Position numbers and translations under genes: made by a program
Notes under the pieces: model-generated
Databases searched by the model: none
What the model was told of the DNA's origin: nothing
What the model saw: only the letters and a program-made list of their open reading frames with translations
DNA from: Marsupella aquatica
Lineage: Eukaryota; Plantae; Marchantiophyta
Assembly: GCA_973895155.1 (NCBI GenBank)
Contig: OZ316897.1
Coordinates: 21,985,455 to 22,049,454, forward strand
Direction of reading: 5' to 3'
DNA: 64,000 nucleotides
Shown here: positions 13,141-52,489 of the stretch, piece after piece
How positions within the stretch are numbered: position 1 is the first letter of the stretch
Layout: each line of letters opens with the position of its first letter

Positions 13141-13149
13141 AAAATCTCA

Positions 13150-19018: not shown

Positions 19019-21849
19019 CCATAAATCAGACTTCAATTACTGAGTATATATATATTACAATTTTGATATCTACGTTGATATCTGCTCTGCAATTATAATA
19101 AAGAAACCCGCCAAAAGTAGTCAATCTTCTCTTTACAATTCAGATTTGGTGGGAACAAAGCCTGACCATTGGATTTATGTTAGGTTTAATTCTAACCTTT
19201 TATCAGCTAGAACTAAGTGTCCACCAAAAGGACCTTAGGGTAGGTAGGTGATAATAATCAGGAGGGGCAGTAATAATTATGAGGGGAAACCGAAAGGGTA
19301 CAAGTAAAGTACACCAAGACATTTTGGTACACATAAGTATATTTAATAGAGGTACTCAATCATTACATGTTAAAAGCCTAATATGTATCTACATGTAGAA
19401 TTAGAAATATGAAATAATCTAATATGGGTGTATGTGATTGTGAAAAATATATTTTTTAATGGAAGTGAACTTAAGTAGTTTTTTTTCAAAAAGCTATAAA
19501 CTAATAATTTGAGGCCAATTAAAACAAAGTCATGGAAAAGTGGAAACCAATCTTGATCTTTTGTCTAAATTATTATTTCGAATCACCTCAATATCTTTTC
19601 CTCACTTTAATATCGTTTTTCGCCTAGACGTGTTTATCAACTTCATATTTTTTGTTCACATTGACAATTAACTTCTCTCCTCGACATTTTTTATCACCTC
19701 AACATCTTTTATCTCCTTGACATCTTTTGTTCACCAAGACATCTTTACGGACCCCACTAGAGGTTCCTTCCAAAATTCCTGGCACCACAGCATGCCACGT
19801 CAGCAACAACCGCAACAAACAAGAATGGTCATGTTTGCGCAACGAATAAACTCCTCTCCATCTTGTTTACGTCGCTTTTCGTGTAATTTTATGGACGCCG
19901 TGCCGTCAAAACATAATGTAAAAGTAATTAAAAGTAGTTTATCCAAATCTATTGATACAAAGGGCGAGATTAAAAACATTCACCCATATTCTCTTTACTT
20001 AAATTTATAATTGTTTTTTTATAAAAGTAAATAGTGTTCAACGTAAACAGTAACCGTATTCCTATGTAACTGCCAAAATAAAACCGTCAGAACAAAAGAA
20101 GCACATCAACATTTCGAAAGGGAGGAAGGCTTTTGATGAAAGTAATGAAAAGAGGAAAGCTCAAAAGGAGTTTCGCCTCTTGAAGTGCAAAGTAAAGAGG
20201 AATGCTGGAGAAACAAAATCAAAAAAGATCAGAAGCCGAATGAAGAAAGCAAAAATGAGAACTGATCGAGGACAGAAAAGAGGCGCAGCACATCTTAATC
20301 AGAAACAAATAGATCGAGCAGAAAGAAGGAGAAGCAAAGAGAATCGATAAGGACATTGACAAGATTGATAAGGACTGATCGACCTCAACTACTCTAGCAG
20401 ATCACTGAAGCTCAACGTAGTAGTCCACTACAATCCATCCCGCCCCCAATCCACACTGCAAGAAGCGCACCTCCACGCCACAACCTCTGTATGCGCTCTC
20501 GTTGTTGATTTTGATTGTACGCGCTCTTGTTGTTGATTTTGATTGTTGATTTTGATCGAAGCTGCCCCATCAAAGATTGTTAACAAACAAACGATCAAAT
20601 CAGGAAGAGAACGACTGCGATTTGAACCAAAAGAGGCCATGGCAAAGTGAAAGCGATACAAAAGGGCGAGATACAAAAGGAGAAGATACAAAAGGGCGAG
20701 AGAGACTAACACAACGCCCCGATGATCCAGAGAACAACAGAAAATTGAAAGAGTAAATTCCGTCTGCATACGACAATGCTTACTAGTTGCTACCCAGGCT
20801 AGATCATGATTGATTGATTGCTGCCCCAGTTGCTACGCGACTAGCAACGAATGCAGGACAGAACTCTAATCTAGCCATACACGATAGAGGACAGTAGCCA
20901 TGCACGACAGGGGAGGTAATTGCTTACGCAGGGCATGGCCTGGTGACGCATTTTAGCAGTAGATTCACCTTTGTGAAGCTTTTGGTGTAAGTTGGAGTTC
21001 CCTCTTGGCAGCGTGTTGGTGGCTCTTAACTTTACTGCGCCCTAAGATTTCCCACCATGTTTTTCCAGATAGATTTTTTTGTTCGAGTGGGCCATACACG
21101 ATCGGGGCAGAGAAGAGCTGTAAGGCAGCGACCTGAGCAGAAGAAAAAGGCAAAAGCAGATTGATCGAACAAGGTCAACTTTCTTATGAGCACCTCCTTG
21201 TCAAACACACTGAGTAATTAATTGTCATTCTCGGGCGAGAACTGTAAACATGTGGAGTCGAGTTAGGAACAGATTTGTCCTCAGCATGGAGTCAGTGCTC
21301 AATAATAGACTCTTTGCCCTTGGGGACTGTAATATCATGTGCTTTCAAGAATTGAAGTCAGCAACATACACTTTTGCAGTCATTTATAGCCAAACTTGCT
21401 GACGACGTCCACTTGGCAATTGCAATGCTGTCCCTAAACTGGCACCTCAAAATTCATGTTCAGTGTCAAGTAGTTTGGCCAAGACTTGCACCAAAGCGCC
21501 TATGATTAGGGCATTCACCATTTTTTCCTTCACGAGCAAGGAAACTAACTTATACTATACATCAAATAGCTACAATTGAAATGCCTCCATGTATTGAGAT
21601 TCTATAGCCTCGAACTTAGCGACTTCCCACAAGCCGATCTTGAAAGGAGAGCAAATGAACAATCGTCTCGATTAAGCTGGCCCAAAAAAGTCATTGTAAT
21701 GCATCACAGTCGAGTTCCTGCGAGCCGAAGGGTTTTGGTAATCGAGACTGATCTTGAAAGGAGAGCAGATGATCACAACTCAACTTCAAAATAGAAAACA
21801 CATTCAGTCCTAGTACAAGAACTCAATGGCTAAACACCCGGCGAACTAA

Positions 21850-24429: not shown

Positions 24430-25165
24430 CATACCTAGGAGAACTATACCTTGATTGGTAACTATACCTTAATGTAAGTATTGCTCTAACCAAAATACCT
24501 GGGAGAACTATGCCTTGACTTGGTACAAGTCTTGGAAGAAGTCACAAGAGGACTCCTACTTGCCGTTAACTTAAAACCTAGTTGAGGTTCTTCGTGCTCA
24601 TGTCACCACTAAGTATCTAGAGCGGAACGCTTAGAGATGTGTAACGTAAATGAGCTTTAGGGGTGATACCCAAAACTGGGAAAACTATGCCTTGACTTGG
24701 TACAAGTCTTGGAAGAAGTTGCAAGAGGACTCCTCCTTGCCGTTAACTTGGGAATACCTAGTTGAGGGTACGTCTTCGTGCTCATGTCACCACTAAGTAC
24801 CTAGAGCGGCACGCTTAGAGATATGTAACGTAAATGAGCTTTAGGGATGATACCCAAAACTGGGAGAACTATGCCTTGACTTGGTACAAGTCTTGGAAGA
24901 AGTCGTACGAGGACTCCTCCTTGCCGTTAACTTGGGAAAACCTAGTTGAGGGTCTTCGTGCTCATGTCACCACTAAGTACCTAGAGCGGCACGCTTAGAG
25001 ATGTGTAACGTAAATGAGCTTTAGGGGTGATATCCCGACGGGGCAAGAGACCAAGCGGAGATGGAGGGAAAAAGGGCATTAAGTAATGCTCTAACCAAAA
25101 TACCTAGGAGAACTATGCCTTGACTTGGTACAAGTCTTGGTAAATGAGCTATAGGGGTGATATCC
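24430..25165. repeat. Tandem repeat of about 180 bp (3 full copies plus partial copies)
   Basis: GGGAGAACTATGCCTTGACTTGGTACAAGTCTTGG at about 24501, 24679, 24862 and 25106. Confidence 0.9.
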
Positions 25166-25793: not shown

Positions 25794-28700
25794 ATGGCGT
25801 ACAATGTCCGAGAAGAGACATGCCGCACGAAGTCATGCAATAAACACCTGTGCCGAGTCACTGAGTCCGTTATGTCAAGGATGGGCCTCAGCCCCATTGT
25901 ATCTCCAAGAATGGAGAGCTGTCTGCCAAAAGACAATCCAAGGCATGAAGGTGTGCGGGATGTGCGGACTAGTTTGATACGGAAACACTCCGAGGATCGA
26001 CAAAACATTCACCATCGTACCAAAGGTGACATGATGCCGTATGGCATATGCAATGCATTTGTCAACCAGTACATTGAGAACCAAGATGGAACAATCAACG
26101 TGTGCATGACTTGCGTGCGAAACCCCGCCCATATCCAGATAAACTCCTTCATATCTCCGCAATATGCGATCGACATCCTACCGCGAAGCCGTGTACATGC
26201 AATTGCTCTCGCTAATCGATTGTCGACTAGGCATCATACAAAAGTACAATGGCTTCCACTCTGGCTTCTACAGAAAGGAAAGCCTCCTTGACAACCTGCT
26301 CATATCCTGGAATCTCAACACGCTAGAGTGCAATAATCGAGAGGAGATCATGCGACAGATATACAAGGTCATGGAACTCAATTTGACGACCAACCAACTT
26401 TTCAGAAGATACATTTCATTGGTCGAATTGCCAGACCCGTCACTAGGACTGTGCATCCTAAGTTCCGACGGAGTAGAGAACATCATCAAAGACAAGAGGG
26501 CAAAGGGAATCACCACAAGATCCATGAACTTTGACCCATTCGACCTCGACCTACACATCCTCCAAGATGTGCAGTACAGGATCCCGACTTCACCCAAGCG
26601 CAAGTACCAGGTCTTTCGTTCCGGCACCGTGTATGACCGCAAGAGAATGTGCTCCAAAGAGAGCGTCAACACCGACGCGGAAGGAATATCGAACGATCCA
26701 CAATTGACATTGGAAAATGCAATGTTCCCGTTCTTGTTTGTCCACTCAAGGGGTTTCCATCAAGGACAACTCAGCTTGATTGACTATATGAAATGGAGGA
26801 CACAACAGTTGTTCAGCATATTCACTTTGTACAAGCCGTACATGCTTATCATGTACCAATTGCGACAGGCCAGCCAAGTAGCAAGCATGAGCAGGATGAT
26901 AGTAATCGACAAGGAATACATGCAGATCAAGGAGAAATGCCCCCACTTTAGCGAGAAGGAAATATACAAAATGCTGATAAAAAAGACAATCATGCAGGCC
27001 ATTCTTGGGAGCTCGGCGTGGCATGGAAGACACCTCGACGACCTCAAGTGCATGGTGAGAAAATGGGGATTGCCCCACTTCTTCCTCACGCTCACTTGCG
27101 ACGAGCTTAGCGACACCCGTTGGCCTGAGATCGCCGACCTCGAGAACCTCGTGAAGAGGATGAATCCGACCTTCTCATGGAAAGATTGTCCTATCAAATG
27201 CGCCGTGCTCTTCCACGAATGAATCCAACATTTTTTCAGGGATTACATTTTGTCGAAATGCGCCATAATCAGAAATGTGATCCAAGTCATCAGGTACGAG
27301 TTGCAGGGCCGCGGATCACTCCACGCCCACACGGTGCTATGGGTCAAGGATTGCAACATCAATCGAGTCACGAACAAAATTGCCGCATTCATCCCTGGCA
27401 GATTTGACTCGACATCCGATAGATTCAAAGAGCCGAATGGACATGAAGAAAAGACCCTGTATTGCAATGTGGTGACAAAACAACTTCACTACTGCAAGGA
27501 GGGCTTGTGCTTGCAAAGGCACTCCCAAACCGGCCTCAAAAACTGCAAGTTGGGTTTCCCCCAAGAAACTCACCTTGACAAAGATGCGGCCATCGACCCC
27601 GCCACGGGGAAATGGAGGTACCATAGGCCAAGCAACCACCACCAAAATGTCATGCCATACCACCCGCTCGTGTTGTTGTTGTGGGGCGCGCACATGAACC
27701 TGTAGCGCGTCACAAACGCGGCCTGGTCATTCTATTTGCTCAAGTATGCGATCAAATGCGAGCCCCTGGGATCACTCCAGCTCAATGCGAACGATGCGCG
27801 CACTCTAGGACTCGAGGACCTGTGTGAAGTCCAACTCAAGCTCGTTAGCGGAGCCGTCCTATCTCGGAGCGTGTGCACCACGGAGGCGGCCTTGATGTGC
27901 CTCAAAATCAGCATCATCCATCGCTCGGAGACAGTGGCGTTCATGGACTCGTCACCTCCGGAACTGAGGTCCGCCATCTACCTTAAGTCCTCGGGGATAT
28001 GTTTGCATCCCACCAGACTCTACGCACAGAGGCCCGAGGACATGTTTGCAATGTCCTTCTACGACTACTTCACCAACCACGAGGTCCTCACCAATAAGAA
28101 AAGCACCACCAAACACTACGTCGGCAGGGATTTGCAAGGCAATTTTGTGTATCGGACGGATTGGCTCGTGCAATTTTTGGAGTATCATCCAGTATACAAG
28201 ATGAACGGCTTCTTCTACAACTATCTCTTGAAGGTCGTGAGATTCCGTGCAGAAGTAGAGATTCTCCTCAGGCCCATAAGCGAGACGTGGAGCTACTTGC
28301 ACGAGTGCATACACCGCAAGGTGATAACCAGCGTCGACAACGTACACAAGTTGGTGCTTGAGTATTGCGCATCGCACCTCTACTCCACCCACCACACATC
28401 CCACCTGCTATAGGAGCTGAACGAAAAGCTTCCCCACCAAATTTTCAACGACGCGGCCACATTCCAAGCAGTCCCCACCGTTGCCGTAGAGAAACCGATC
28501 GGCGCGGTGCTCAACGACAAAACTCTCCCGACCGTCAACTTGACTCCGGACCAAATCAAAGTGTTTGAGGCACTCAAGGATTTCAAGAGCGGTCTGTTCA
28601 TGATCGATGGAAATCTGGGATCCGGCAAGACTTTCTTCATCTCTTTCATGAACAAATACTTGACATATAAAGGGAGGAAGGTGAAGATGTGTGCCACCAC

Positions 28701-29429
28701 GGGCGCGGCTGCCAAAAACCTTCACGCGGACGCGGTGACAATGCATGCCTTGTTCAGCATTCCAATACACGGAGAGCTCAGGCCTCTGGACATCACCAGT
28801 TCCCAATACCGCATCTTGAGGAACAATGACGTGTTCATCATAGACGAGGCGAGCATGCTGACACCCAAACTATTGCGTTGCGTCTCCAGAAGACTACACG
28901 AGACACTCCAAGATGAGGACTGCTCATCCGACCCATTCCAAAATACGACGGTCATCCTGGTCGGAGACATGTGCCAATTGCCTCCGGTTTGCACCCACCA
29001 CACCAACGACATATGCAGGTCGTGCCACCTCTCGTCCTCACCATATTTTGAGACCATGCGGAAATTTCACCTCAGTACTGTGCTCAGACAGAGCACAGAT
29101 CGGGAGTTCATGGAGTTCCTTAACAACATCCGCACAAGCCTCCCTACCAAGAATCGATCGATGAGTGCCTGGGACGATGTTACGTGTCCAAACAAGAAGC
29201 CCATGATTTCATCTACGCCTCGACGACCGTGATATGCACACATAGAGAAACAGTCGACAACTACAACAAATGGGCATTACGGAGATATTTTCCACGCCAA
29301 GAGATCGTGCCCGTCCCAATACTCACCAATGCCCCTTCAGACGAATCCACCCGGCCTTGGATACAAGATCCCTCCTTCCACACACTGACGAACGTTGCAA
29401 TCAGATGCAAGGTGATTCTCACACACAAC
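25794..29429 (+). pseudogene. Helitron Rep/Pif1 helicase (RepHel), 5' part
   Basis: HUH motifs FFLTLT, RYELQGRGSLHAHTVLW and YLLKY; Pif1 motifs GNLGSGKT, FIIDEASML, LVGDMCQLPPV and LRQ; in-frame stops at 27220, 27703 and 28411; interrupted at KVILTHN. Confidence 0.9.
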
Positions 29430-30101
29430 TGACACGAAGCCTTAAAGGATGGGTAATAAGCCCAATGTATAAGAACTAATGATAAAAAAACCTTGAAAAT
29501 ATGGAAAAAGGCAAAAAATGCATCTAAAAACAAGCTCTTTTTTTGGCAAGAACTCAAAACTTGCAAAAAAACACAAAATAGGGCATCATTTTGACTACTC
29601 AAAATCACAAAACTGGTTGTGGGAAACATTTAATAAGCAAATACCACATATTTCAATGTTGCAATTTACTACTTGCACACATTCAATCGGCTCAATAACA
29701 CATTCACCCTTGAAATACCACCCTAAAGTTCATTGACATCCCAAATATGTAAAGTTTTTAAAAGAGGGTCAAGATTTCCAAATTATTTTGCAGTTTGTAG
29801 GATCCTAGGGTTCATTTACCAAGAAAAACCATCATTCACACAAAGGGAATGACCAGTATATCAAAAGCTTCCAAATATATATGAGATTCTAGAAGGTACC
29901 TCTTTTAGTTGATATTTTGTTTTCTGAATTTCTCAAACAAGACTGCCCACACGATGGACATTCTCAAAATGTCAAACTTCTTTCAATATCATTCATGAAT
30001 TCATGAATTCATCATTCACAACATTTATGGTTTGCCACCAACTCAAACAATAATAAATTGCAAATACTCTTGTTTGACAAAATTGCTAAGATTGGTAAAT
30101 A

Positions 30102-33100
30102 TCAATTCCTACCATTCATTTCTAGAGGAACTTCCATTGAAGTTTCTTGTTGATAATTTCTAACTATGCTACCTTCACCTTCTTGGTCTTTCTCCTCCTT
30201 GAGAAATTCTGAGAGTCGTATTTTAATACGATCTATTGTTTTCTTGTAAAGAGTATCAGACCTTGTTAGCATAAAATTATATGCAAAGACCGTAGTTGAA
30301 GACAGATCAAGGTCTTGACAAAACCAAACTGGTTTCAAGGTTCCCTTGCCTCGTCCACTTTTCTTCTTCTCGTAACTCAACACTTCTGGCAGATATTTTC
30401 CTTTCCAAGGGTCGGATCCTTTCTTTGTTGCATGCCACAGAACTGAGATAATCTTTGGGATGTGAGCCTCATCGCGAAGAACAATTTTTTCTACTTTAGC
30501 CACCCAAAATGATTCAGACTTCTCTCCGGCCACAGAAATAAATGTGTTGATTTCCAAATCCAAAAAATCACCTTCCATATTCTCCTTCTGTGCATTTATC
30601 TTTTCTTGATTTCGATATGGACCAACATAAATTTCTCTAGTTGGACCGTACACTCTCTCTTCAATTTCTTCCTCATTCAATATAGTTGTAAGAGGTTCAG
30701 CTCCGAGATCAGCTTCAACATTTGTATCCCCTTGTGCCTTGGGCCATTCAAATGGAGAGATCAAAGGTCTTTCTTCAAGCAAGAGACTGAGATCTATTGA
30801 ATTCTCTTTGTTCCTCAGAAAAAGAAGTCCACCAAACAACTTCTTCTTCCGAGAATAATATTTGAGCTGCAAATATACCTTTTTGAATTTCATTCAAACA
30901 ATCATCCATTTCGGACAGGGTCATTTTTCCTGAAGATGATACATGAGCTTGATTTCCCGCCCTTCCGTCGTCTCATTTCTTGTCTTCCTTTCTTGATAAG
31001 TGGCATCCCATCAGAGCACCCAATCACCTTTGGTGGCATGTCTTCTTTCAACAATTTAACACCTCCTTCTGGTTTCCAAACCATGTCGATGGAAAATTTC
31101 TTCCCCCATTGTGTTGGAACTTGATCATCTTCACAAGCAAAAGAAATTTTATATTGGTGATGAAAAGTAACATTTCGTATCCTTTCTCTGATCAAAGCAG
31201 GCTCTGAGAAAGCAAATTTTCCAAAATCATATGTCTCATTTAAAAGGGTAATTTCAGGTTGGGGTTGGTAAGATTCTTGAATAATCTTACATAAACTATC
31301 ATAGGTAAAGGCCTTAAATCTTCCAAGCCTTTTTGAGAACCTACTAAACATCTGATCTATTTGATCATGGGTGTGTCCAATTAAGAGGAATCCAAGTTTG
31401 ATTTTTCGAAATACCTTTTTTTGTACCAGCATGTGAAGATATGTGAAAAGTAAATTGTTTTTGTTTTCCCTACTTGTATTGTCAAGCTGAAGGTAAAAAA
31501 CTGGTGGAAGGCCCCCATACTTCTCTTGGTATTCTAGGAATACTCTTTGTAAAATAGTAATGGTAAGATTTCCATCATTATGGAGAACTGGATAATTAAG
31601 GAACACCCTAGAAAATAGTGCTCCGTGGAAAAGAAGACAACCAACCACATGCATTTGGATTAAACAGGCCTCATCAATGGATTTTGGAGGACGTGGCCAA
31701 TGGGGTAATCTAGTCTTTTTTTGATCAATTCCATCAATCACAACTCCCAAATATTTTCTGGGTTTGTGAAACATTTCTTTCGATGCTTTGCTAGTTTTTC
31801 CCGCTCTTTCGATTGTTGTTCTCGATGTTTTTGTAACATTATTTCTCCTCTCCCTGCAATGAATCCAAAAATGGTAGAGCAACGTTGTTAACTTGAAATT
31901 CATTCCTAATGTTTAGCCATTACTCAATTGATTTCCTGACAAATCTAATACAAAGACATGTTCAAAACAACAAAAATGAAAATGACTTACGTTTTTCAGT
32001 TTCAGAGACTCCTTTGTCTCGAATCGTTTTGAATTCCTCACAGTCCGCACAAGCACTAAAACGATTCACAGGAGGAATCTTCACATGCCCAAAGTCTTAT
32101 TACCATACTTTCAAAAATTGCCAATATGATATTTTGGATGACTCATCAGTGATCACATAGCTTGAATCATATATTTTCCAAACTTCTAGTTTGGAATAAT
32201 TATCAGGCAAATGTGAAACATCTTTATTTGGTAGAGTCTCCACACGAGTCTCAAAAAAAGACTTCAACCAAGAGCTCAATACCAATGTTCTCACAGATGG
32301 AGGTCGACCAGCCGGTCTAGGATAAGCAAGATTTTGATTGCCTAGCTTCTTGATCCTATTCAATCTCTCATTTCCTACACAAAACACCATCTTGAAAGCT
32401 TTCTGACACACATCTCTTTGTCCAATCATGTATGTGACATTGGACCTCCCCTATTCATTTCCGTCTTGCTTGACGAGCCACTGCAAAGATAAAGATTGAT
32501 CCTGAGATTTTTGCCTCAAAAACTTTGAGCGTGCTTCACGAATTTGTTTTGGTGAAAGACTCAGGAGACAATGACGTTGACAGCAGTACTTACGATTTGT
32601 CTTCTTGATATCCTCGTCTGTCATCTTTGTTTCACACAAGCTGAGATTTGACGGTCGTTTATTAGCTATCATAACTCTCTCTGCAGGCTCTTCATCACTC
32701 TCAGAAGAAGATTCTTCGATTGAAGAAGATATCTCCACAAGTTTATCGAGTTGGTATGCAGACAAACCCCTCCTCACCCGGCCTCGAGCGGGCCCTCGAG
32801 GACTCAATGGCTCCTCCTTCACTCTCAAAAGGAGTGAGTTTGATCGATTTCCATCTGAATCCCCAAAGAAACCACCTTCGGTTGACTCTCTTGGCCTCTT
32901 GTTTGGAATCTCCTCAAAGACCTTCTTCTTGCCCTTGTTGTATGCCAACTTAGATCCGCTTCCAACCTCAGCCAAACGATCGAAGTTCCCTAGAGATCTT
33001 CTCAAATTGATCCTCTCCTTGTTCGAATTAGTCTCAGTTCCAAGTGGCCTCCTTGTTTCCGCTCTCACTCCTTCTTGAAATCTGAAAGATGTAGGACGAG

Positions 33101-33567
33101 AATACTCACTCTCTTTCATTGGTGCATGTTGCACACCACGACTTTCCCGGAGTGCACAAAAATCCACTTTTGTGCTTTCACTGGGCATTTTTGACACATC
33201 TCCAGATCTGGCCTTCATGAATTCATGAGTCCTCTTTTTCACATCTCCACTATGTTGAGGGCCTACAGAACGCACACCCAATTTAACCCCCCTTTGAGAA
33301 GGATTCGATAATACTTGATGGCCAGGGGGACTTGTACTCTCAGATGAGTCCAAAGACTCAGAGTGCTCACTCAGACAAGGACCAAATACTTTTTGGTACA
33401 CTTAGAGCCTTTCCTTTCAACTTACTCATTGGAGTTGGGGGAAGCATCTCCAAAATAGTGGTTTTACTAGGAGCATCAGGAGAAGTAACAGGACAAGGAC
33501 AATCCGGGAAGGAAACATCATCCGAAATACCATCCGAATAATCGTCTGACTCATAACAGGCTGCCAT
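30102..33567 (-). pseudogene. DUF7869/Sola1-like DDE transposase, copy 2; spliced, frameshifted
   Basis: VIDGIDQKKT-LP, FYLQLDNTSRENKN, FLLIGHTHDQIDQMFS; CCQRHCL, CQKAFKMVF, FSACADC; intron 31854-31990 at the same position as in copy 1. Confidence 0.82.
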
Positions 33568-33664
33568 TTCAAAAATTGCACAAAACTCACAAGGGAACAC
33601 TAGAACACCAAATGAACTCAAACTGAAAAATCGAAATGAGATAGAGTCATGAATACGAAGCCCC

Positions 33665-33671
33665 TTTTATA
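33665..33671 (-). promoter_or_regulatory. Putative TATA box of transposase 2
   Basis: TATAAAAGGGG about 100 bp upstream of ATG 33567. Confidence 0.5.
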
Positions 33672-34609
33672 GATTTTGGAAATAACTCAAAAACTTAATT
33701 AGCAATAAAATAAGAAAAAGGGCCACGCCCTTCATTAGTAATTAGTGACAAGGAAAGAAATCTTTCATGAGAAAATAGTTTATTATTTATCCAAATCTCA
33801 CAGGTTTACTTATGTTTTCAGGTTTCTAATACTCATTAGAGTTCTTTGGAGACTTGGTTAATTCATTCCTGTGAAGTCTTCTCCTGAAATATTGTGAGTC
33901 TTCTCATAATTTTATTTTTTACTTAAAGCATATGTTTTCATGCCAAACTCTTAGATAGTGTATCAGTAATGCATTGGTCATTTTTACCCCATGTTTTCTT
34001 TGATGTTTTTGGAGACTATTCAATTGCAACCAAAAATGTCTTCAATGACCTCTACTTTTAGAGGTTTTCTTGGTTTTTCTTGTATTTCTTTTACCCATGG
34101 TATTGGTTATTTTGGGCCCAAATTTTGACTTCTTACTAGATTCTTTCAAAATGATACTTGATTCCCTTTCATGAATTCATGAAGGGTTACGACCTTCCTG
34201 GATTCCTGGAGTGGAGGTGGCGAAAGCTTCATGAATTCATGAACCCAAAAATTAGAAAATGCTAAGTTTGAGACAAATTGGACTGTCAGGTGCTTGGAGT
34301 GTGGGCGTGCATCTGCAAAGGGCGAACGGAAAGGAAGCTTGGTGAAGAGCTATGGTGGGCTGATGCTTGGTGCTGTGGAAAGCTCTTCCCTCAGTGATTG
34401 CTGTGGTCTGAATAGGAGTTGGGTTGAATCCCTAAACTGGAACTGAAAATCCGGGGCGGACCAACATCTGGTGCAGCTCTGTAATTTCCTGACTGTTGAG
34501 GCGCAGATCGGTCGTGGAACAGAGGATTAATCGTGGAAGGGAGTGGAAGAAATTTGGTTAGGAGGCAGCAAGATCAAAAGCTGTCGTGCAAGTTTGCGCT
34601 CGGGAAGGG

Positions 34610-35130
34610 GATTGTCGAAGGCCTGGGGAGAGGAAATTGGCAAAATTTGGGGGAGGGGGGAGAAATTCGTGAAGGCCAGGGGAGGGAGGAAAAATTGTCG
34701 AGGCGCAGCCGGGGGCGCGGGGAAGAAGCGCCGGCCTCGGGGAGGGGAAAAATTGTCAAGGCGCGGCCAGGGGCGCGGGGAAGAATCACCGGCCTCGGGG
34801 AGGGGAAAAATTGTCAAGGCGCGGCCAGGGGCGCGGGGAAGAATCACCGGCCTCGGGGAGGGGAAAAATTGTCGAGGCGCGGCCAGGGGCGCGGGGAAGA
34901 AGCGCCGGCCTCGGGGAGGCAAAATTGGCAAAGGCCTGGGAGAGGAAATAGTGTCGAGGCGCGGGGGAGGAAAAAGTGTCGAGGCCGGGGGGAAGAAAAA
35001 GTGTTGAGGCGCAGGGCTGAAGCGTCAAAGGTTGGGGGAGGGGAAAGAGTCGAAGCGCCAGGGGAGGAAGAAATTGGCAAAGGCCGGGGGAGGAGAAATT
35101 GTCGAAGGGCCAGGGGAGTCCATCGCCGAA
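34610..35130. repeat. GC-rich, G-run-rich 58-bp tandem array between the divergent genes of element 2
   Basis: AATTGTC(A/G)AGGCGCGGCCAGGGGCGCGGGGAAGAA.. at 34693, 34751, 34809 and 34867, with degenerate flanking copies. Confidence 0.9.
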
Positions 35131-35435
35131 GAGACGAGGTCCAAATTGGGGAGGACATTGCAAACGACATTAAGTGGGGAGGGGTCGATCAGCTCGGGCA
35201 TCTGCCAGGGAGATGAAGGACATAAGCTAAGCCAAAATCAGGGAAAAAAATACCAGTGACACTCTTCTAAGCGGGAACAACCGTCTAGGCTCAGGCGCTG
35301 CAAATTCAACTTCCGACTCACACTGTCAAGGTAAGAACCTTGCTTCATGAAATCATGAACCTGAATTCTGCAACTGAACTTGAAAAACAAACAAAGCTGA
35401 CTTTACATTGTTGGACTTGATTTCAGGAAGTCAGA

Positions 35436-38391
35436 ATGGTTGAACCAAAATCACAGGAGAAGGTGTTAGACGCTATTTTCGTTGAGCATCCATTGACAGA
35501 TTTTGGAAACTCTTCCTGGACAATATCATTGGGTACAGAATCGTGGAAGAAGCCTTTTTTGATGTTGTGCATCTACGAGACCTTGCCTTCTGGAGGTCTT
35601 GGTTGGGTGAATTATGGCCGGATTGATGTCTTTCGACGAGGGGCTGATGTCCTCAATATGCTTATCACAACAAAGGAGACATCTACACTGATTGCAGTTG
35701 ACAGTGAGAGATTTTGTGGAAGAGTTGCGCATTGTTACTTGCCTGATGACATTGAGATGATTATTGAGAAGGTGAAGAATCTGTCTGCAGAAGAAAGCTA
35801 CGATGAGATTGTAGAGCTCATTGCTGGTTTTGTGTTTGAACATCATGCCAGCACATTGAAGAGTGCAATTCGAAAGTCTAGGGTGCAGTAGAGAAGAGTG
35901 CCAGTGCCCGTCCACCAAAGTCCGGTCCTTCTTCTGCTCCTTCCGGATCTCGTCCGAGTTCTGTCCCAGCAAGAAAGATGGTTGTTACATCTCCAATAAC
36001 TGGTGCTGGTTCACAAATTGCAAGATCACAAGAGGGGACAACTGTGACTGGAGGATCAGCACAGGGCACTACCGGTACTCGGACTTCATCAAAGAAACGT
36101 GGACCAGAGGGTTCTCAAGGTGCAAGACCAAGTCCACCAAAATCCAAGAAGCAGACGTTGGAAAAAGTCCCCACTCATCTAGAGTAGAAGGCTCAATCTA
36201 TGTCTATGGATGCTCGGGTGGTGTACCAGGAAGGGATTTTGATGAGGTGTGGAGTTCAAGAGGAGACAATCACAATTGACATTGCACAACTTCACCCACC
36301 TGTCCGAGAGAAATCTTTGGAGTTGCCAGTGTACCAAGTAAGGCATATCCAACCCTACTTTCTTACACAGTTGACAACAAGGATGAAAGCAGCTGAAGCT
36401 AGTCCATTGGCAGCACCTTTTGTTCTCTTGGTTGATCCCAAGGAGTGCCCAACTCGAGCTGATTTTGATTTCTCAAAAAAGAATGATTACCACTATTACG
36501 TGATTGGGGGAAATCATTCTGCTTGTGCAAAGGCAGACCTAGCATTACAATTTCCCAACAACAAGTCGTACAGGAGAGTGCAATCTTGGATCTTTGCAGG
36601 TCTATCTATCCAGGAAGCAAGGAACTTAGCTTGGAGTCATAATATAGACTCTGAATTTCGTCAACAAATGAGCACCATCCAAAGAGTGAATTAGATTCAC
36701 ATGCGATTTGTAGAGAATGGATCATCATCAAATGTTGATTTCAAGGAGTGTGCCACTGAAATCAATCTAAAGGACTGGGGTGTACGTAAAGATTCTGAGG
36801 TTCTGAATGCCAATGATAATTTATTTCAGTTGGCATTTCGTAAGGATCTTGTTTGGTCTTTCATACGGCAGATCTTTGACAGATGGGAGAATTGTGAGAT
36901 AAAAGGACAGAAAGGAGATAAGACCAAGAAAAAGATGTCCAAGTCTGGAGATGCTAAAATGCTATGTGAGGATATGAAGTTGACTGAGTGGAGACACATG
37001 CAGGCATTGAAAGATCCGGAGTGACATGATCTGTCCAGTGCTACAAAGGGTTTTGGCAAAGGAATTATCTCTTCAAGAGATGGGACAGGAATTTCAACGA
37101 CACAAATTCCAAATGCAAGTTCAAAAAGCATTTCTTACCTGTCTTCACGAAGAGAGTTGGAAGAATTGCAAAACCAAGTACCCAGAACACTGCACTGATA
37201 ATGTGCTGAAGAATTTTGTTCATGTCTTCCAGACTTGGGTAAGTTTATTTGAGATTGACTGAGCATTTGTTTTACAGTTTTATTCTTAAGTATGTAGGAA
37301 TCTCATGTACCCAATTTTGTTTTCTCAGAAAGACAGCAGCTCTCGGAAAAAGAAGGGAGAGAATGAAGAAAGCAAAGAGTTGAAGTCCTTCCCCGATAAG
37401 TTCAATGCACATATTGCACAAGCACAGAACTGGTTGGCAATGAAGAAATCTTGCCAAGAGACCCAGGGAAGTGAACTTCATCCTAATGCTTTGAGCATCC
37501 ACAGTTTGGGGATGTGTACTATGATATCTTTACACACGATGCTCAGCGGTTGCATGAGGTAATCCCATCACGAGCTTACACATTGGCTTTGGCAGATATT
37601 CCTTATGGGTTTGGAATGACTGCTTGTCTTCACAAAGACAATGTTGGATGGGGTGTGGAAGAGGTGACCAAGATGGTTCAGTCCTTCAAGGTTGTCACCA
37701 AGGCAAATCTTTGGCGAATTATCATTCATCATAGTATTGACCAGTATGATGCTGTCAAGACTATCTTGAAAGCTGAGTGTAGTGGTGGTTTCCAGAATTG
37801 TATTTGGTAAGAAACATTTCAAAAGGTGAATATGTTTTTTTGGTGTTCATGATTTCATGATGTTTGATTTTGAAACAAATCCATAATGCAAGTTTTGGTT
37901 TTTGCAGGGTGAAAGACAATGTTAAGAATGCAGGAGGTGCAAGGCTTAACAACAATTTTGAGTGTTTCACCATTGGCTTTCATAGTCAGGATGGGAAACG
38001 GTCTTTGGAGCATTTCAATTTTGAGACTAATGAGTCTCGAAATAATGTGGTTGTGTGTCCAGCTGTGACCAATAAGTTGAAACACAACGGGGACAATAAG
38101 CCAAGAGTATTATTGGATTGGGAAGTTACCCACTTTAGCCAGGTTGGAGACTGGGTGCTAGATATTTGTTCAGGGTCAGGCACAGGATTGTCTTCCTCTT
38201 TGGCACAAGGAAGACATTGTGTTGCTGTAGAAATTGATGAGCGCCAGAGTAGTGTCTTGAAAGGGAGAATTCTAAACCTGGTGAACAACATTGAGGAAGA
38301 TGATGGCAAAGGCATGGTGGATTTAGATGTTGATGTTCAAGAGACCATTCTACCAATACCAGAGATAGGAGTTGGAGAGGAGGAAATCTAG
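35436..38391 (+). pseudogene. ParB/Srx-like domain + beta-class amino DNA methyltransferase fusion, copy 2; spliced, disrupted
   Basis: 5' UTR intron 35331-35426; introns 37239-37328 and 37807-37907. PFVLLVDP...YYVIGGNHSACA; ADIPYG; KPRVLLDW...GDWVLDICSGSGTG...CVAVEID. Stops at 35889, 36185 and 36692 plus frameshifts. Confidence 0.85.
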
Positions 38392-38767
38392 GACTTGACT
38401 CTTCAGGAGTTGTTGGAAGTGTTGAGGAAACAAGAGATGATTAGCTGAGGATATTTCTGTAAGACTTTTTAGGGTTGTTTTAGTTGCATAGAAGTAGACT
38501 TTACTTGCAAGTTTTGAGATGTCAATGGCCTTGGAGCCTAGACTATGATATAAATGATTGTTTTTGACAGGTCAATTCTATGAAAATCAAGTTTTGAATA
38601 TGTTTTGTCTCAAACATTGATGTAAAGTCTAGTTTAAAATGCAAAGGGTGAATGTCAAACAAATATGCTGATTTTATTGCTTGTTTTAGGACTACATTTC
38701 TAAAAATCATAATTTTTTGGAAAAAGGAATTAAGGCCTTAGACCCATCCTTTAAGGCTTCTTGTTAC

Positions 38768-39244
38768 ATCGACCTCTCCAAGCAGGCCGAGAACGGCAAC
38801 AGAGGAATCGTGGAGAAAATCACTACAGAAGCCGAAGGCAAAATGTCGATTTTTGTGAGAATGTCTTCCAACCACTGCCTCGTAAAGATCAACCGCACGG
38901 TTCACGAGAACAAGTTCATCTCGGGACAGCAAACCCATCGGAAATCCACTTTCCCTCTCATGCTCGGATACGCCATAACAGGTCACAAGAGCCAAGGTTG
39001 CACACTAGCGGGCAAGGTCATGCTAGAAATAAACAGTGCATTCACACCGGGACTGGTGTACGTTATGTTGAGTAGGGTCACAAATAGAGCATTCATGCGC
39101 ATTGTTGGAGATCTTACGTCGCCGGACTTCAAAGTGTTCCACTTACCAATTCGTCGTGTTCAACAAGCAGATGTCGACCACCAAAGGCAACAAGGCAACG
39201 AAGGCATCACAACAACAACGAGAAACAATGACAGGCGCAAATAG
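38768..39244 (+). pseudogene. Helitron Pif1 helicase, 3' part
   Basis: IDLSKQAENG, FPLMLGYAITGHKSQGCTL and GLVYVMLSRV. Confidence 0.9.
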
Positions 39245-39417
39245 CAATCCGACGAGCGCTACTCCTACAACAATTCAGGTAAACAGTGTCCACATCATAC
39301 TTCACCTTGTTGATGCAAGCGATATATAATGAAATGATGATACAAAAGTTGCAAGATTCATTAACATGGACGGGCACTATTGTTCTAACACATTGTTCAC
39401 GTCTTTCCTGTGCAGCC

Positions 39418-40040
39418 CATGACAGCCGTGGAGATGGCAAGGATGATCATGAGAGAGCTGCCGTGGGATGACTTCCGGACTGACGAGGAGGTAACGGCTA
39501 AACAAATTGCTTTCGGCAACGGTCTCGGAATCGAGACAACTGAGATGGTGAATGGGATCAAGAGGAGAGAACTGTCGAAGATGATCGAGGAGAGGAAAGT
39601 GTTCAAGGCCGACTTCTACAATCATTACGGAGATAAACCGGCGACTGGTAAGCACAAAGAGAAAACCCCCAATAAAAAATGAATTAAACCATCTCATGCA
39701 CACATTAAGCACTAACTCCGTGTTGAAAACAAATGCAGGTGTCATGAAGGAGATTCTTAGGTACATGGCAGTTCCGTTCGAGGAAGACCAGCTCACTTAC
39801 AAGGACGGGATGCGTGAGTACATCCAGGTCACAAAGGGAGCTTGTCTGGAGCAACTGACCAGATTGAGGCATGATTTCAAGATGCCACTTGATATGTTGG
39901 TAGGGCTGACACATCAGCAATCCCAGTCCCTGATCGACAGGCTGAGGAGGAGCAGCGACCAGGGGCTGCTATCTGACGTCCCTGCCCAAACAACAACAAA
40001 ACAACCCACCACATCCAAGCGGAAATTCAACGCGATGTGA
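39418..40040 (+). CDS. Uncharacterised Helitron-associated ORF(s), probably one disrupted gene
   Basis: Two consecutive ORFs (39410-39682 and 39696-40040) of similar composition to RepHel, between the helicase and the putative 3' end. Confidence 0.35.
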
Positions 40041-40433
40041 CAGTTGTTTCCATGATGTAGTACAAGTTTCATTTTTCAGAACAATGTGGTGTATCATGCA
40101 AAAACAAATGACAAGTCCCAATAAAAATACCCATTGTCGGAAACATATTTATCTATATCAATAACTATCTACTTTTTAACACATTTTTTATTTTGTATCA
40201 ATAACTATCCACTTTTCAATCTCAATCGAATAAAAACAGGTGGGAGTCCACAAACTAATTTATCTCTTTGAATGACATATTTTCTCACCTGATCGAAATC
40301 ATTTATTTCCTTGAAATTTTTGCTTACCTTGACATCTTTTCTCTCCATGGCATTTTTCATCATCTCAACATTTTTTTCTATTTCAAGATTATTTTTCTAA
40401 ACATTTTTTATCACCTCAACATCTTTAATGTAA

Positions 40434-40464
40434 AGCACAATGTAAACCACGGGCATCAGGCTAG
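40434..40464 (+). mobile_element. Putative Helitron 3' terminus (degenerate hairpin + CTAG|T)
   Basis: GCACAATG..CACGGGC..CTAG followed by T at 40465. Confidence 0.5.
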
Positions 40465-41898
40465 TATATATATATTCATGTTCTTGAAAAACGTGCACAG
40501 TTTCGAAAGTAATCTTGACCAAATTGCATATATATTGAGGTAAAATTTTGGAGTTTTAATACGTAGCTAGCTAGGCCGGCCATGATAGAGTAGGCGGTAA
40601 GGGACTGAAGAGTGTAAGCATTAGATAGGGATCGACTGTGATGGAGGTGTTCACGCCCCACACCCGGTTAATGTCCTGAGTAAAATCAGATATAGGTTGA
40701 AAAAAGCAAGGAAACATAACACCATTTAATGCATACTTTTCCCCTCTATTTTTATTCTATAGGTGGTTCTATCTTTACTGTTAGAGTCCCAGAGATCGCT
40801 CTGCTGTTGGATCCCGATAACATGACATGCAATGAAATACTCCTACTCTTCGGTAGTTAAGCTTCGCCTACTTAATTTCCGGACGGTTCGAACTCTGATT
40901 GCAGTAAGTTAAGTTGAACCATTATGGTTAATTACCATATATCTGTGCGGGTGTACGTTCGTTGATTTGTCGGGTCACTTCCGTTGCCTCGTTCCTCGGA
41001 GACTCTAGGAGATTCTAACGTTATTTTCGTTCTGTGAATGTCTCGCTTGGTCTGTTCATTAGACACATATATAGTTCAGATAGTCTAGCAATCCTGCGAT
41101 TTAATGAGTCTCTTGTACTTGGCTTCAGCTATAAAGTCTTTGTCACATTTCGATACGCAAGAGTAATGAGGATCGTGTGTTGGACTGCTGAACAGACAAA
41201 AACAATTTTTCCAAGGTGATAGAGACAAGAGAGTAACAATTCGAGAAGCAATATCCCCAATCGTCATAATGACCGAGACCATACTTATATCTCGGAGATT
41301 GAACTTATCAATCACAACACAAAACGTTGTACCCTTGTGTCCTGGGTTGGTATAAACAAAGACTCAAGGTCAGAGGGAAGAATATGGCCACCTCGGCGCC
41401 TCAGCGGACACCGACTCCGCCCCCAATATATGATGGTACAAGCGCCCCCGTGCAGGGACAACTGGCCGGGGCTTTCACCTCCTTGCCCGAAGGCACAGAA
41501 AGGAAGAAGACAAACGGTTTATCTCATTGCAAATGATTATGAATAAAGACAATCAGCTAAACACATAAAAACCAAGGAACTTTACTGAATGAAAAGATAG
41601 TCACGGAAGCATATGAATATATATGTGGCAGCCGTCATTCCCAGTCAGAATTGTTGCCAATGCAAAATGTGGAGCGCACAACTACCCTACCCTAACTCCA
41701 TCGATTTATTTTCCTATCTTAGCGAGACAGAAAGTTGTCCGCTATCACGGTTGGATCGAGTGCAAGTATCATACATTTTGCAAATTATCTAGTATATATT
41801 ATCTCTTCCGACAGTGTCTGCATCCGACATCAGATTGCTAGCTTTCCTACTGGAAATCACAGTTAGCTACTCATAACTTTCTTTTGGGCGCACCCACG

Positions 41899-44229: not shown

Positions 44230-47200
44230 ATTGTGAGTGGGTGCAAGTGCAAGTACAATGAGAGTAGCTGGGAACAAGATATGTGTTCGCTGAAAACCTG
44301 ATGTACCTACTGTTGAAGATCTCGACTTTGTATCGTTAATTTACTGACCAAGCGAGACACGAAGAGTCAATAAGGTTAGTCTCCAAGGAACGAATCCATG
44401 GGTCACCTATCCTCTCAATGATTATATAGACAGTAAACCCGCTGCTTGAGATGCATGACATCCTGACCAATCTGCCTACACAATGTTGAAACGTTTCCTG
44501 TGTACATGGCTTCGACTGACCGCCACAGGCCCACAGCTCGTGATAGATTATTTAGCATATATGGTCATGACTGTTAGATTGTACTCCCAGAGTCTCAGAC
44601 TTCACTCAACAAACTTTAGCGCCCAAGCCTTATTTTAACATGCTATATGCTTGATTGACCCACAGGGATACAGCCCCGGATAGAGATGAGCATTCAGATC
44701 ACCTTGCCCATGGATAAGCATATCTAGGGTAAAGTGTTTAATATATTTTGTCACAGAAAGTACATTACAAGAGATTTCGTTTAGTACTCCATGCCAAGAA
44801 AATGCATCGCCTGATCTTGTGAGACAGGGGAGGCATCAAAAATTTCTTAATGGGAAACCGGCTCATCAATTTGTTCTTGACAACAAGGCTGCTGATAAGG
44901 TGAGTCGGTCCCTACCGTAGTTCCTAATGGCCCGAATTGTTCAGCTGCTTAATTTATTCTATCACGTTTTATGTCTGCAGATCAGAGGATAACTGACAGA
45001 GGTTGGGTTCCGAAAGAGTTATTCAGTGTTGGAGGCTTACTTTGGTTGTCCTTCGGATGCCTTGCTTACATTTTCTCCATGGACTCTGTGGAACAGAAAT
45101 ATGCCCTTAGTCATTGAAGAAACGAATTGTGCTTGGGAAAACATGATAAAGATATCTGTTCCAGCTGGCGAGCTATCGTTGATGTGATTTAGAAACCATA
45201 TTTTATCCAATCAGGCGTCAACTGATGACCTTTTAATTTCCTTCCCACGATCAAGAGAAGCACTGGAAAGGGTGAAAAAGGGGCCCCATATTTCTTGAGC
45301 ACTGTGTTATTCTCTCACACAACAATGTTGCATTGAGTACTTGACAACTCGGGTGGCTTTCCTGAATGGTTAGCAACGACCAGATGGCGGGCCCAAATGT
45401 ATTGATGCAAGGTCAGGTCAACAAAGCTACATGCTTCTACTACCGTATACCTGTGCTTTTTTCCTAAAATATGATTGAAGAGTACAGGACGAAGAGGCTT
45501 ACGTAGCGCTTTGCTAGCAAACCAGACCTAGTCGCCTAGTTGGAAAATTTGATTAATGTTTGTTTCGAGACACAAAAACAAATTTTCACAAGTTGACAGA
45601 ATCATATGAGGGCTGGAGATGGTTCGTTTGTGTTCAGGTCAGTATGGAAACACTTCAGACTTCACGGGCTTAATTTGTGAAGAACAGAACGTCCAATTTG
45701 TTCAAGTTGAGCCGAACAAACGAGGGCAATCCGAAAATTATTCATAGTCAGATCAAGTGATGGGACAACACCCTTCGGAATCTAACTTTTTCAATTTGAT
45801 CAACGACCAGTCTGAATAATTAAATGATCTCAAGCCATTTCTGTATTGGTTTAATGACAGACAACTAAAACTACCGGTTTCTTCTTAAAGAGCTACATGT
45901 GACATTCCCTAATTTGAATTCTAAAATATGGGATGTGCCGAGCGACTACCGTCATAAACATTTTGGCAGTATGAAGGTCTTTGGGGATGTGCTAATCGAA
46001 CGCCTGTCAGCTGCATTGGGGCCGATTAACTCTCCTTGATTTGAGCATCTGCACGTTTCTCAAGTCCCTCTCCTCGAACTTGCTGCGAAACTATACAGAA
46101 TGGCGGGTCGACATCTCTGCGGTTCAGCAACGGTAGTCGGTATCAAGAACCAATCTCTCAGTAATTAGATCTCCCTACCACCGTAAACCAATCGCTCAGT
46201 AAGTGATGTTACTGACAGGAATTCAAAACAGCATTTGCGGAATGACGGGTGTTGTTGTGAGTAAATAGGGTCGTTCGATTGCGTCGACCATGGTTGAGAG
46301 TTGTGTGATTGAGCCACAGGAAACGATAATTGGTGGTATCGAAAATCAGCCTCTCAATATTTTAACTAGATGCAGAGGAATCTAGATATGCCCTAATGAA
46401 CAATCTTTGATTTTCAATAAAGATGTAACCAGTTATTGGCGGTACGGACAATCATTCTGTCGATATTTCTCGATGCGAAGACGAATCTATAAAATGCATT
46501 TTCCATAAAGATGATGGGTGTTTACGTACCGCGGACAAGAATTGACTGGCTTCAACATTTCTTCACCTCGCCTTGGTATACAAACCATGATACGCTGGTA
46601 CAGATTCCTGCATGGAGGGTTGGGACAGATTCAAGCAGCACTATAGATTCAAGCTGCACTATAGGCGCTGGCGAGATGGGGAGGACTTCAAGTTGCCTCC
46701 TCAAGAATCTTTGATATTCCATACAGATATACACTGCAACCGATGGTACCGAGAGACAGTCTCTCAATACATTTCTCGATGCGAAGAGTAATCTAGAAAT
46801 GCATGTTCCATAAAGATGATGGGTGTTGTTGTACCGTGGAGAAGAATTGCCTGGATTCAACATTTCTTCACCTCACCTTGGATTTACAATCCATGATACG
46901 CTGATACAGATTCATGCATGGAGTATTGTCACAGATTCAAGCTGCACTATATGTGCTGGCCAGATGGAGATGACTTCAAGGTTTGCCTCCTCAAGAATCT
47001 TTGATTTTCCATACAGATATATACTGCTACCGATGGTACCGAGAGACAGTCTCTCAATATTTTCTCGATGCGAAGAGTAATCTAGAAATGCATGTTCCAT
47101 AAAGATGATGGGTGTTGTTGTACCGTGGAGAAGAATTGCCTGGATTCAACATTTCTTCACCTCACCTTGGATTTACAATCCATGATACGCTGATACAGAT

Positions 47201-48300
47201 TCATGCATGGAGTATTGTTACAGATTCAAGCTGCACTATATGTGCTGGCCAGATCGAGATGACTTCAAGGTTTGCCTCCTCAAGAATCTTTGATTTTCCA
47301 TACAGATATATACTGCTACCGATGGTACCGAGAGACAGTCTCTCAATATTTTCTCGATGCGAAGAGTAATCTAGAAATGCATGTTCCATAAAGATGATGG
47401 GTGTTGTTGTACCGTGGAGAAGAATTGCCTGGATTCAACATTTCTTCACCTCACCTTGGGTTTACTATCCATGATACGCTGATACAGATTCATGCATGGA
47501 GTATTGGCACAGATTCAAGCTGCACTATATGTGCTGGCCAGATGAGAGGACTTCAAGTTGCCTCCTCAAGAATCTTTGATTTCCATACAAATGTACACTG
47601 CAATTGATGGTACCGAGAGACAGTCTCTCAATGTTTTGTCGATAGCGCAGAGTAATCTGGAAATGCATGTTCCATATACATGATGGGTGTTGTTGTACCG
47701 TGGAGAAGAATTGCCTTGATTCAAACATTTCTTCACCTCCCCTTGGTTTGCGAACCATATAAGATTGGTACATTTCGAGCAGCACTATGTTGGCGAGCAT
47801 GAGAGGGATTCAAAGTTGCCTCCTGAAGAGTCTTCGAATTTCCAGAAAGAGGTTGACACTAATTGGCGGTACCCGACTGTCAGTCTCTCAATATTTTCTA
47901 AACACGAAGAGGAATCTAGACATTCATCTTCTAGATAGACGATGGGCGTAGTTGTGACGAGAGGAAGAATTGCCTTGGTTCAACATTTCTTCACCTCGCT
48001 TTTGGTTTACAAATCGGTTGAGATTGGCACCAAGTCAGAAGAGTTATATTGGTGCTACCGAGAATAAATTGTTGACGAGTTCCAGTTGCGTCCAGAAATA
48101 TCTTAGGTTTCCCGTAAAGGATGTTGGGGCCATTGTGACTAGGAGGAAGAATTATCTTTGGATGACATTTCTTCACTTCGCCTTGGTTTACATATCGCAT
48201 CAGATTGGCACAGATTCAATTGAAGAGAAATTCAAAGTTGCCTAGTGAAGGATTGTTGAAGAATATTTGATTTCCATCACAATGATGGGTGTCGAAGTGA
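44230..48300 (+). pseudogene. Highly degenerate NLR-like (NB-ARC-LRR) relic
   Basis: Fragments in the expected order: P-loop-like (~44240), FRKSYSVL (~45010), HDQ (~45246), LRR-like RLTLLDLSICTFLKSLSSNL (~46024), then the 289-bp array with SL(N/S)I-SRCEE-type motifs. Confidence 0.4.
46440..48010. repeat. 289-bp tandem array (about 5 copies; central copies near-identical)
   Basis: Near-identical ORFs at 46823, 47112 and 47401, spaced 289 bp apart. Confidence 0.92.
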
Positions 48301-51849: not shown

Positions 51850-52489
51850 GACTACACACAGAACTATCTCTACTTGACTCGAACTGTGCTTGCTCTTCTC
51901 GATACTCACAGCATGCAGCTGGCTTCTGATTACTACGACTACGCCGTTTCTCTCTCAACGACCGATCAATGCATCTTCCTAGAAGATCGCCTCGATGATC
52001 CCCAAACACCTCCTCCTCGTCCTCCTCCTCCTTGCGTGCGAAACAAGCGGCGAAAAGAAACCAACAAAGAGGAGGCGAAGATCAGCGCGAAGGCACGCAG
52101 AAACCAGAACTCCAGCGGAGCTAAGTGACCATATTGAGATCGGAAGCGCCTCGAAGTTGCTGGCTCGGAACACGTCGCGTGCAGAGTGCCCAATCCGCAG
52201 CACACGACCGGCGGATGTACTTTGTGAGTAGCGGTAGTAGTAGTATTTAGTAGAAACAGCAGCAGCAGCAGCAGTCCACGAGCTCAGTCCCGAACATGTC
52301 GACTCGATGCGACGACTCCAATGCCCACCACCCCAACCAAATCGCTCAAGCTCCCGAAAGAGAACCTCATCGAGAAGCTTCGCGAGAGAGAACCCTATGT
52401 TCGCGGCTCTCCTCGAACAGCCCACGCGAGTCAAAAACCAACACCATGGCAGCAGACCCACGTTTCTACAAAGCGGGTCAAACACGCAC

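Follow-up and report, generated by a model that had tools for sequence, protein, structure and literature searches.

What reads a 16-base palindrome that recurs at dispersed, internal points of a plant transposon? The question is raised by a 64,000-nucleotide stretch of the genome of the liverwort Marsupella aquatica (contig OZ316897.1, positions 21,985,455 to 22,049,454), which was analysed as a whole and is called the window here. The window holds two related DNA transposons, element 1 and element 2, each of which encodes a DUF7869 transposase and a cargo protein and carries its own palindrome. The evidence reviewed below indicates that the palindromes are probably bound by the ParB-fold protein of the element itself, with a fused methyltransferase likely recruited so that the lineage can regulate or mark its own copies. 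A first-pass annotation had proposed that each subfamily co-evolved its own site and protein specificity, much as plasmid ParB/parS incompatibility groups do.

Two transposons and their palindromes

The features of element 2, with the palindrome TTCATGAATTCATGAA (16 bases), are as follows (TIR, terminal inverted repeat; UTR, untranslated region).

29430-38765: element 2, a cut-and-paste DNA transposon of about 9.3 kb, from the empty-site joint and the translations
29432-29454, plus strand: left TIR, 23 nt, 96% complementary to the right TIR
38742-38764, minus strand: right TIR
29428-29429 and 38766-38767, plus strand: AC duplicated at the borders, a 2-bp target duplication (1-bp if the element ends at 38766)
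26143-29429, resuming at 38766-39244, plus strand: host Helitron with Rep and PIF1 helicase (PF14214, PF05970)
30102-33567, minus strand: DUF7869 transposase gene, introns inferred (PF25273, E 1.8e-49, alignment)
35436-38391, plus strand: cargo gene, encoding an unknown N-domain, a ParB/Srx-fold domain, a helical domain resembling the ParB DNA-binding domain and a beta-order amino-methyltransferase
34623-34970, plus strand: G-rich tandem repeat with a 58-bp unit, 5' of the cargo gene and without the palindrome
29992-30015: palindrome, perfect at 29992, with a second copy (2 mismatches) overlapping it from 30000; 3' of the transposase stop
33214-33229: palindrome, 1 mismatch, inside the transposase reading frame
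34168-34183: palindrome, perfect, between the divergent genes
34228-34243: palindrome, perfect, between the divergent genes
35344-35359: palindrome, 1 mismatch, in a putative 5' UTR intron of the cargo gene
37846-37861: palindrome, 2 mismatches, in a methyltransferase intron

Element 2 splits the PIF1 helicase gene of the Helitron. Position 29427 is joined to 38766 in contigs of four of four sequencing runs, the best-matching of which may be the source sample, and two letters at the joint fit either side. Element 2 was therefore genuinely inserted here, with 2 bp (or 1 bp) of target sequence duplicated. The translations of this copy contain in-frame stops and frameshifts. There are two genes in the whole element, transcribed divergently from a head-to-head arrangement. 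The transposase shows the conserved motifs IDGxDQ, LQLDN, NKN and GHTHDQIDQ, and three aspartates (D60, D144 and D186) are conserved in the DUF7869 alignment. DUF7869 transposases presumably resemble the DDD transposases of the Sola superfamily. Sola elements are described as having a target site duplication of 4 bp (PMC10741241), and the one insertion examined, that of element 2, has two duplicated letters instead.

Element 1 contains the same two genes in another order.

1-15650: element 1, genes tail-to-tail; left end beyond the window, right end approximate
280-3843, plus strand: cargo gene
about 4175-7680, minus strand: transposase gene
141-15341: palindrome CGATAAATTTATCG, 13 sites (141, 228, 3888, 3947, 5812, 5870, 5928, 6015, 7972, 8043, 8115, 15100 and 15328)
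8167-15019, minus strand: nested long terminal repeat (LTR) retroelement; LTRs of 1870 bp that are 99.9% identical, flanked by a 5-bp duplication; the empty site appears in 3 of 4 runs

The retroelement divides element 1, and two CGATAAATTTATCG sites lie beyond the insertion and none inside it. Degenerate copies also occur in the introns of the element 1 cargo gene. The retroelement is itself young, with a gag-like open reading frame (ORF), no pol ORF of at least 100 aa, and an 8-bp periodic repeat within each LTR. The tail-to-tail genes of element 1 differ from the head-to-head genes of element 2 and of two relatives described below, L001 and L012.

The six element 2 palindromes reported by the first-pass annotation were all confirmed, in position and in match grade, and the overlapping site at 30000 is an additional seventh. 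Their contexts also agree: the site at 33214 lies in the reading frame, that at 35344 sits in a putative intron running from a GT near 35331 to an AG at 35426, ahead of the ATG at 35436, and the intron around 37846 has exon borders that align with those of two relatives. Within two mismatches, TTCATGAATTCATGAA is found seven times in the 9.3 kb of element 2, and neither in element 1 proper nor in 39 kb of other window DNA. The lone outside match (11366, two mismatches) falls in the LTR retroelement nested in element 1, and the central 14 bases have one 2-mismatch match in element 1, which is the chance level. Likewise, CGATAAATTTATCG within two mismatches occurs 13 times in element 1 and nowhere else in the window. 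The earlier statement that neither element carries the motif of the other holds within one mismatch both ways. Not one of 200 sequences simulated from element 2 with an order-3 Markov model contained a 14- or 16-base palindrome twice, while four and three occurrences, respectively, were observed.

These counts bear on the explanation that the motifs are sites for host transcription factors, or neutral products of slippage or local duplication, which is considered very improbable. The element 2 motif is indeed an 8-base unit doubled, and tripled at 29992, as slippage might produce. The sequence TTCnnGAA also resembles part of a heat-shock element; a canonical heat-shock element was discarded, however, as its second unit would be out of phase and is absent from L002. 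Against this explanation, the sites are dispersed across 7.9 kb and absent from the other 39 kb, and their flanks are unrelated (mean identity 15.3 of 50 versus 14.7 at random, with 1 of 20 pairs above the 99th percentile). Because the flanks are no more alike than random sequence, local duplication does not explain the element 2 sites. Further evidence on this point comes from the relatives.

Covariation of site and protein among relatives

One metagenome scan for relatives returned ten loci (L001-L010), in which dyads were sought without a prior motif. An enriched dyad is present in three of them. L001 shares 69% identity with element 2 and carries five sites of TCATGAWWTCATGA; L002 shares 64% and carries three of TCATGCTAGCATGA. 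L004, closer to element 1 (50% identity) than to element 2 (32%), has 20 sites of CGAT-CMAAAC-ATCG, with an asymmetric spacer. The arm TCAT is kept in both relatives of element 2, and CGAT is kept in the relative of element 1. The sites are even-centred dyads of 14-16 bases, and an AT-N6-AT frame, which has an adenine in either strand, is common to the five plant motifs. At positions 307-380 of L002, two sites lie inside perfect 32-base palindromes, the sole extended hairpin-type sites seen.

In the protein tree, which omitted L008-L010 and homologues covering fewer than 190 profile columns, element 1 groups with L004 and L007 (100/96) and element 2 with L001 and L002 (85/94). These groupings support, at the level of sequence, the view that the arms of the site follow the protein tree. 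The positions of sites are conserved as well. The coding site at 33214 of element 2 aligns with a site in L001, and the same methyltransferase intron carries a site in element 2, L001 and L002. The prediction that further family members would have enriched palindromes tracking protein phylogeny was largely upheld, with motifs in 3 of 10 loci and arms that follow the clades. For the host-factor or neutral explanation, the retention of positions across relatives of 64-69% identity is a difficulty, as is the fact that the sites change together within each element.

More distant relatives were also recovered. A transposase scan of prokaryote genomes gave two loci. In L012, a DUF7869 transposase gene lies head-to-head with a ParB-like gene, and TTGAAATTTCAA is repeated 22 times in a transposase intron and eight times in a cargo intron. 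In its fuller form, the L012 site agrees with parS in 10 of 16 bases. The L012/L023 region (G001:C12, about 578000-589000) belongs to an intron-rich, eukaryote-looking contig of 733 kb in a 16-Mb assembly filed as a bacterium, and is probably host DNA that was binned in. In L028, a variant with CATT arms occurs 11 times, in the cargo-gene intron that also holds the array in L012. These two loci represent a third palindrome type whose arms are not AT-N6-AT, and a universal AT-N6-AT rule was dropped for this reason. The placement of L012 in the tree is unsure, as it sits on a long branch. Near-identical 28-bp arrays of TTGAAATTTCAAGACTGG occur in L027 (8989-9581) and L029 (2669-3233), which are possibly non-autonomous partners.

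Some sites of element 1, L004 and L012 sit in tandem repeats, which again might be expected of neutral products. The dyad p-values are inflated for tandem arrays (L012 and L027-L029), as they are in the L026 minisatellite, whose dyad was rejected as an artefact. On the other side, the L012 palindrome is identical in two unrelated repeat units.

Named homologues of the cargo come from Calypogeia, Riccia, Chara, Adiantum and Ginkgo. In Riccia, the transposase and cargo homologues have adjacent locus tags (R1sor_010795 and R1sor_010796). Profile scans for the cargo confirmed 0 of 53 candidates in viral contigs and 0 of 29 in prokaryote genomes, and none of 381 transposase candidates in viral contigs was confirmed.

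The cargo protein and candidate readers of the sites

The ParB-like region of the cargo protein was recognised from structure; it is not detected by Pfam or PHROGs, and a profile search of solved structures with the cargo returned methyltransferase matches only (best E 0.007). An AlphaFold model of 36188-37021 has a mean pLDDT (predicted local distance difference test) of 78, and all nine of its Foldseek matches at E<=0.001 are Noc or ParB, the best being 6.5e-5 to Noc. The N-terminal part superimposes on ParB with Z 8.5 and a root-mean-square deviation (rmsd) of 2.4 over 95 residues, tied with other ParB/Srx-fold proteins. A ParB/Noc fold for this domain is thus supported by the models. The helical domain that follows, folded alone from L001 (pLDDT 85), ranks ParB/Noc chains first to fifth, albeit weakly, and it aligns with ParB/Noc DNA-binding domains at Z 4.1-6.1 and rmsd 4.0-6.1 over ~100 residues. 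Self-dimerisation is also predicted. A two-copy model of the L002 ParB region scored 0.41 versus 0.03 for the best of three controls, a value that may stem from resemblance to ParB dimers of solved structure; the runs share at least 79% of contacts, with pLDDT of at least 68. Among microbial proteins, 21 of 30 solved pairs but 0 of 23 single chains reach the mark for this score, and the eukaryotic figures are 17 of 29 and 0 of 30. Upstream of the ParB domain lies an N-terminal domain of ~150-200 residues (35436-35890 in element 2; 280-900 in element 1), which has no Pfam match and differs between the two clades.

A candidate for the segment that reads the DNA was found by eye before a conserved FQLAF. 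It is RKDSEVLNA in both element 2 and L001, where the consensus is the same, and RKDTDVLNA in L002, where the centre of the palindrome is altered. This segment is a candidate recognition helix. In ParB/Noc proteins, specificity is reported to be switched by few base changes, the central one included (PMC7383237).

The methyltransferase of element 2 has motif IV (DIPY) before motif I (DICSGSG), the beta order, with both motifs intact, and its match to PF01555 (N6_N4 methyltransferase domain) scores 27.3 bits against a cut-off of 26.7. Catalytic-type motifs (DIPY, NIPY or DVPY plus DxxxGxG) are intact in elements 1 and 2, L002 and L004, while L001 has motif IV and its contig ends before motif I. 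The relatives of this domain are beta-class phage methyltransferases. The mark would probably be N6-methyladenine (6mA), judging by D or N rather than S in motif IV. Reported repeated changes in the target specificity of this domain call for caution in inferring the base (PMC8885841).

These properties suggest a second candidate for the reader, namely that the palindrome is the bipartite recognition site of the methyltransferase, read through its target-recognition region while the ParB domain merely dimerises or tethers. The intact catalytic-type motifs, the beta-class phage relatives and the AT-N6-AT frame with its adenine on each strand in all five plant motifs are in keeping with this explanation. 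Nevertheless, it appears improbable. A site with 14 specified bases is long for a methyltransferase target. Moreover, in L012/L023 and L028 the methyltransferase motifs look decayed (in L012 and L028, motif IV is unrecognisable and motif I degraded), yet the arrays, with arms that are not AT-N6-AT, are kept. Their retention therefore favours the ParB part as the reader.

The third candidate is the transposase, which could bind the sites for synapsis or for transcriptional self-activation. Transposase and sites are as fully co-inherited as cargo and sites, sites occur within the transposase gene in element 1, L012 and element 2, and a preprint reports a transposase that activates cognate copies in a sequence-specific manner (10.64898/2026.08.24.746577). 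This explanation is nonetheless about as improbable as the preceding one, as the sites are internal, the outermost ones in element 2 standing back 563 bp from its left terminus and about 900 bp from its right terminus, and the 20 sites of L004 are around the cargo gene and within its introns. In addition, L011, a DUF7869 transposase without a detected cargo, has no dyad in its one 4.8-kb contig.

Binding by the ParB-fold protein encoded on the same transposon remains the preferred explanation, and the ParB part is quite likely to be the reader. A cargo dimer is predicted to read the two half-sites and to load at several internal points of its own element. The fused amino-methyltransferase, probably N6-adenine-specific, would be brought there, and copies of the same lineage would be regulated or marked. 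Where the DNA-reading helix changes, all sites of the element would change along with it, giving lineage-specific control as in VANDAL/VANC. Binding, spreading, methylation and effects on expression or transposition are steps that we infer. Self-marking by methylation as the output is a tentative proposal, somewhat short of an even chance.

Several observations weigh against this explanation. No enriched dyad was found in seven of the ten metagenome loci: L003 (9.5 kb), where a 2.7-kb gene remnant lies amid other retroelements, and L005-L010, which are 1.1-2.6 kb and mostly coding. The matrix of motif cross-matches is diagonal except for element 2 and L001, each with two sites within one mismatch of the other's motif, and the two overlap in the consensus TCATGAWWTCATGA; the sites are therefore not fully private. 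The covariation rests on five plant elements, among which kin share labels by descent, and the transposase and cargo are inherited together, so the tree cannot tell which of them reads the site. L024 has ParB fragments and no palindrome array, whereas L027 and L029 have arrays of the L012 core and no detected cargo or transposase homologue. The match of the helical domain to ParB DNA-binding domains is not significant on its own (E 0.84-1.7). The cytidine triphosphate (CTP)-binding motif of ParB, GERR(x)RA, is replaced by GGNH[SG]xxA, and the loss of the GERR arginines makes a CTP clamp doubtful, although the pocket residues R52, G108, H110, A114 and N152 are conserved in 71 of 79 to 101 of 103 alignment rows. 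Finally, the observed/expected ratio of CpG, an indirect gauge of host 5-methylcytosine (5mC), is 0.45 in element 2 versus 0.84 in its host Helitron. This depletion argues against simple protection from 5mC. The ratio is 0.73-0.86 across element 1 (0.83), L001, L002 and L004 (0.86). Overall, the proposal that each subfamily has its own co-evolved site stands insofar as relatives have palindromes of their own whose arms track the tree, and is not supported by the pair that shares TCATGAWWTCATGA or by the seven loci without a motif.

Surroundings and comparison with known systems

The rest of the window is rich in repeats. Towards its 3' end (40275-40445), the Helitron (26143-40465) has an AT-rich repeat with an 18-bp period, and a similar copy lies at 19589-19746. 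At 56644-63881, a DDE_1 (pogo/Tc1-like) ORF (56738-57577) is accompanied by a pair of 139-nt inverted repeats 6960 nt apart. Tandem arrays of about 289 bp and 180 bp, and a dispersed family of 260-290-bp repeats that flanks the DDE element, are distributed over 46389-48211, 24487-25140 and 52486-60436. A CBP60-type calmodulin-binding protein gene lies on the minus strand at 50024-51954.

VANDAL is a Mutator-type element. In Arabidopsis, the accessory protein of each VANDAL family, VANC, co-evolves with a short non-coding motif of its own, and binding has been demonstrated (PMC5735166). The family-specific motifs likewise differ between related elements, as they do here save for the overlap of element 2 and L001. 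In contrast, the VANC motifs are 8-9 bases long, non-palindromic and spread by tandem repeats, and VANC removes 5mC (PMC5735166); the protein is also unrelated. The plasmid proteins KorB and VirB (8qa8/8qa9) resemble the proposal made here in that their ParB fold serves gene regulation or anti-silencing, through scattered sites, and not partition, but are described as CTP-dependent bacterial proteins that lack a methyltransferase domain (PMC10653881). Regulators of the VANDAL/VANC and KorB/VirB types are closer analogues than partition systems. The bacterial ParB-parS and Noc-NBS systems share the predicted fold, the apparent domain order and the 16-base palindromes (PMC7383237). Nevertheless, the cargo differs in its replaced GERR arginines, its fused methyltransferase and its residence in a eukaryotic transposon, and no ParA-like family, the neighbour expected of a ParABS partition system, was detected among the 35 window ORFs scanned. 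The comparison with plasmid incompatibility groups is accordingly a loose one.

Cargo of this class is already known from algae. Sola1-1_Ec32 of Ectocarpus is a DNA transposon with a divergently transcribed accessory gene encoding a ParB-like domain and an N4C/N6A methyltransferase, proposed to bind and modify its own sequence (PMC12477816). As described, it has a 4-bp duplication and a 282-bp TIR, compared with 2 (or 1) bp and about 23 bp in element 2, and the main text names no site and does not contain the string 'palindrom' (PMC12477816). In Bostrychia, the Plavaka element PAG3 encodes a ParB-like accessory protein, and tandem inverted-repeat arrays beside the gene are proposed as its binding sites (10.1101/2025.02.11.637652). 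There, the ParB domain is fused to a 2-oxoglutarate oxygenase, the methylase is on a separate gene and the transposase is of the EnSpm type; the text gives no site sequence or covariation, and Supplemental Fig. 13 may show the repeats (10.1101/2025.02.11.637652). Both the cargo class and the idea of self-binding have thus been published. The literature searched contained nothing on these land-plant elements, their sites or DUF7869, and Repbase, the 2011 Iyer chapter, the Ectocarpus FASTA and the Bostrychia supplements may hold part of it. Within that literature, a site code that tracks lineage and is conserved in position appears to be new.

A broader and more speculative scenario, which we consider rather unlikely in full, is that a bacterial reader of the ParB/parS type was captured by eukaryotic cut-and-paste transposons and, beyond Chara and bryophytes, reached ferns, Ginkgo and a distant eukaryote. 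It would form a reprogrammable address system in which the dimer of each lineage loads on its own 16-base sites and puts a bacterial-type methyl mark on its own copies, providing transposon self-recognition in plant chromatin. What is available now is a set of seven candidate pairs of protein and site, which have diverged to graded extents, retain positions of sites and offer a candidate for the segment that sets specificity. If the proposal is right, these elements would represent a second lineage-specific system of self-regulation after VANDAL/VANC, a possible source of 6mA or N4-methylcytosine (4mC) in non-flowering plants, and a naturally occurring collection of orthogonal modules that bind DNA.

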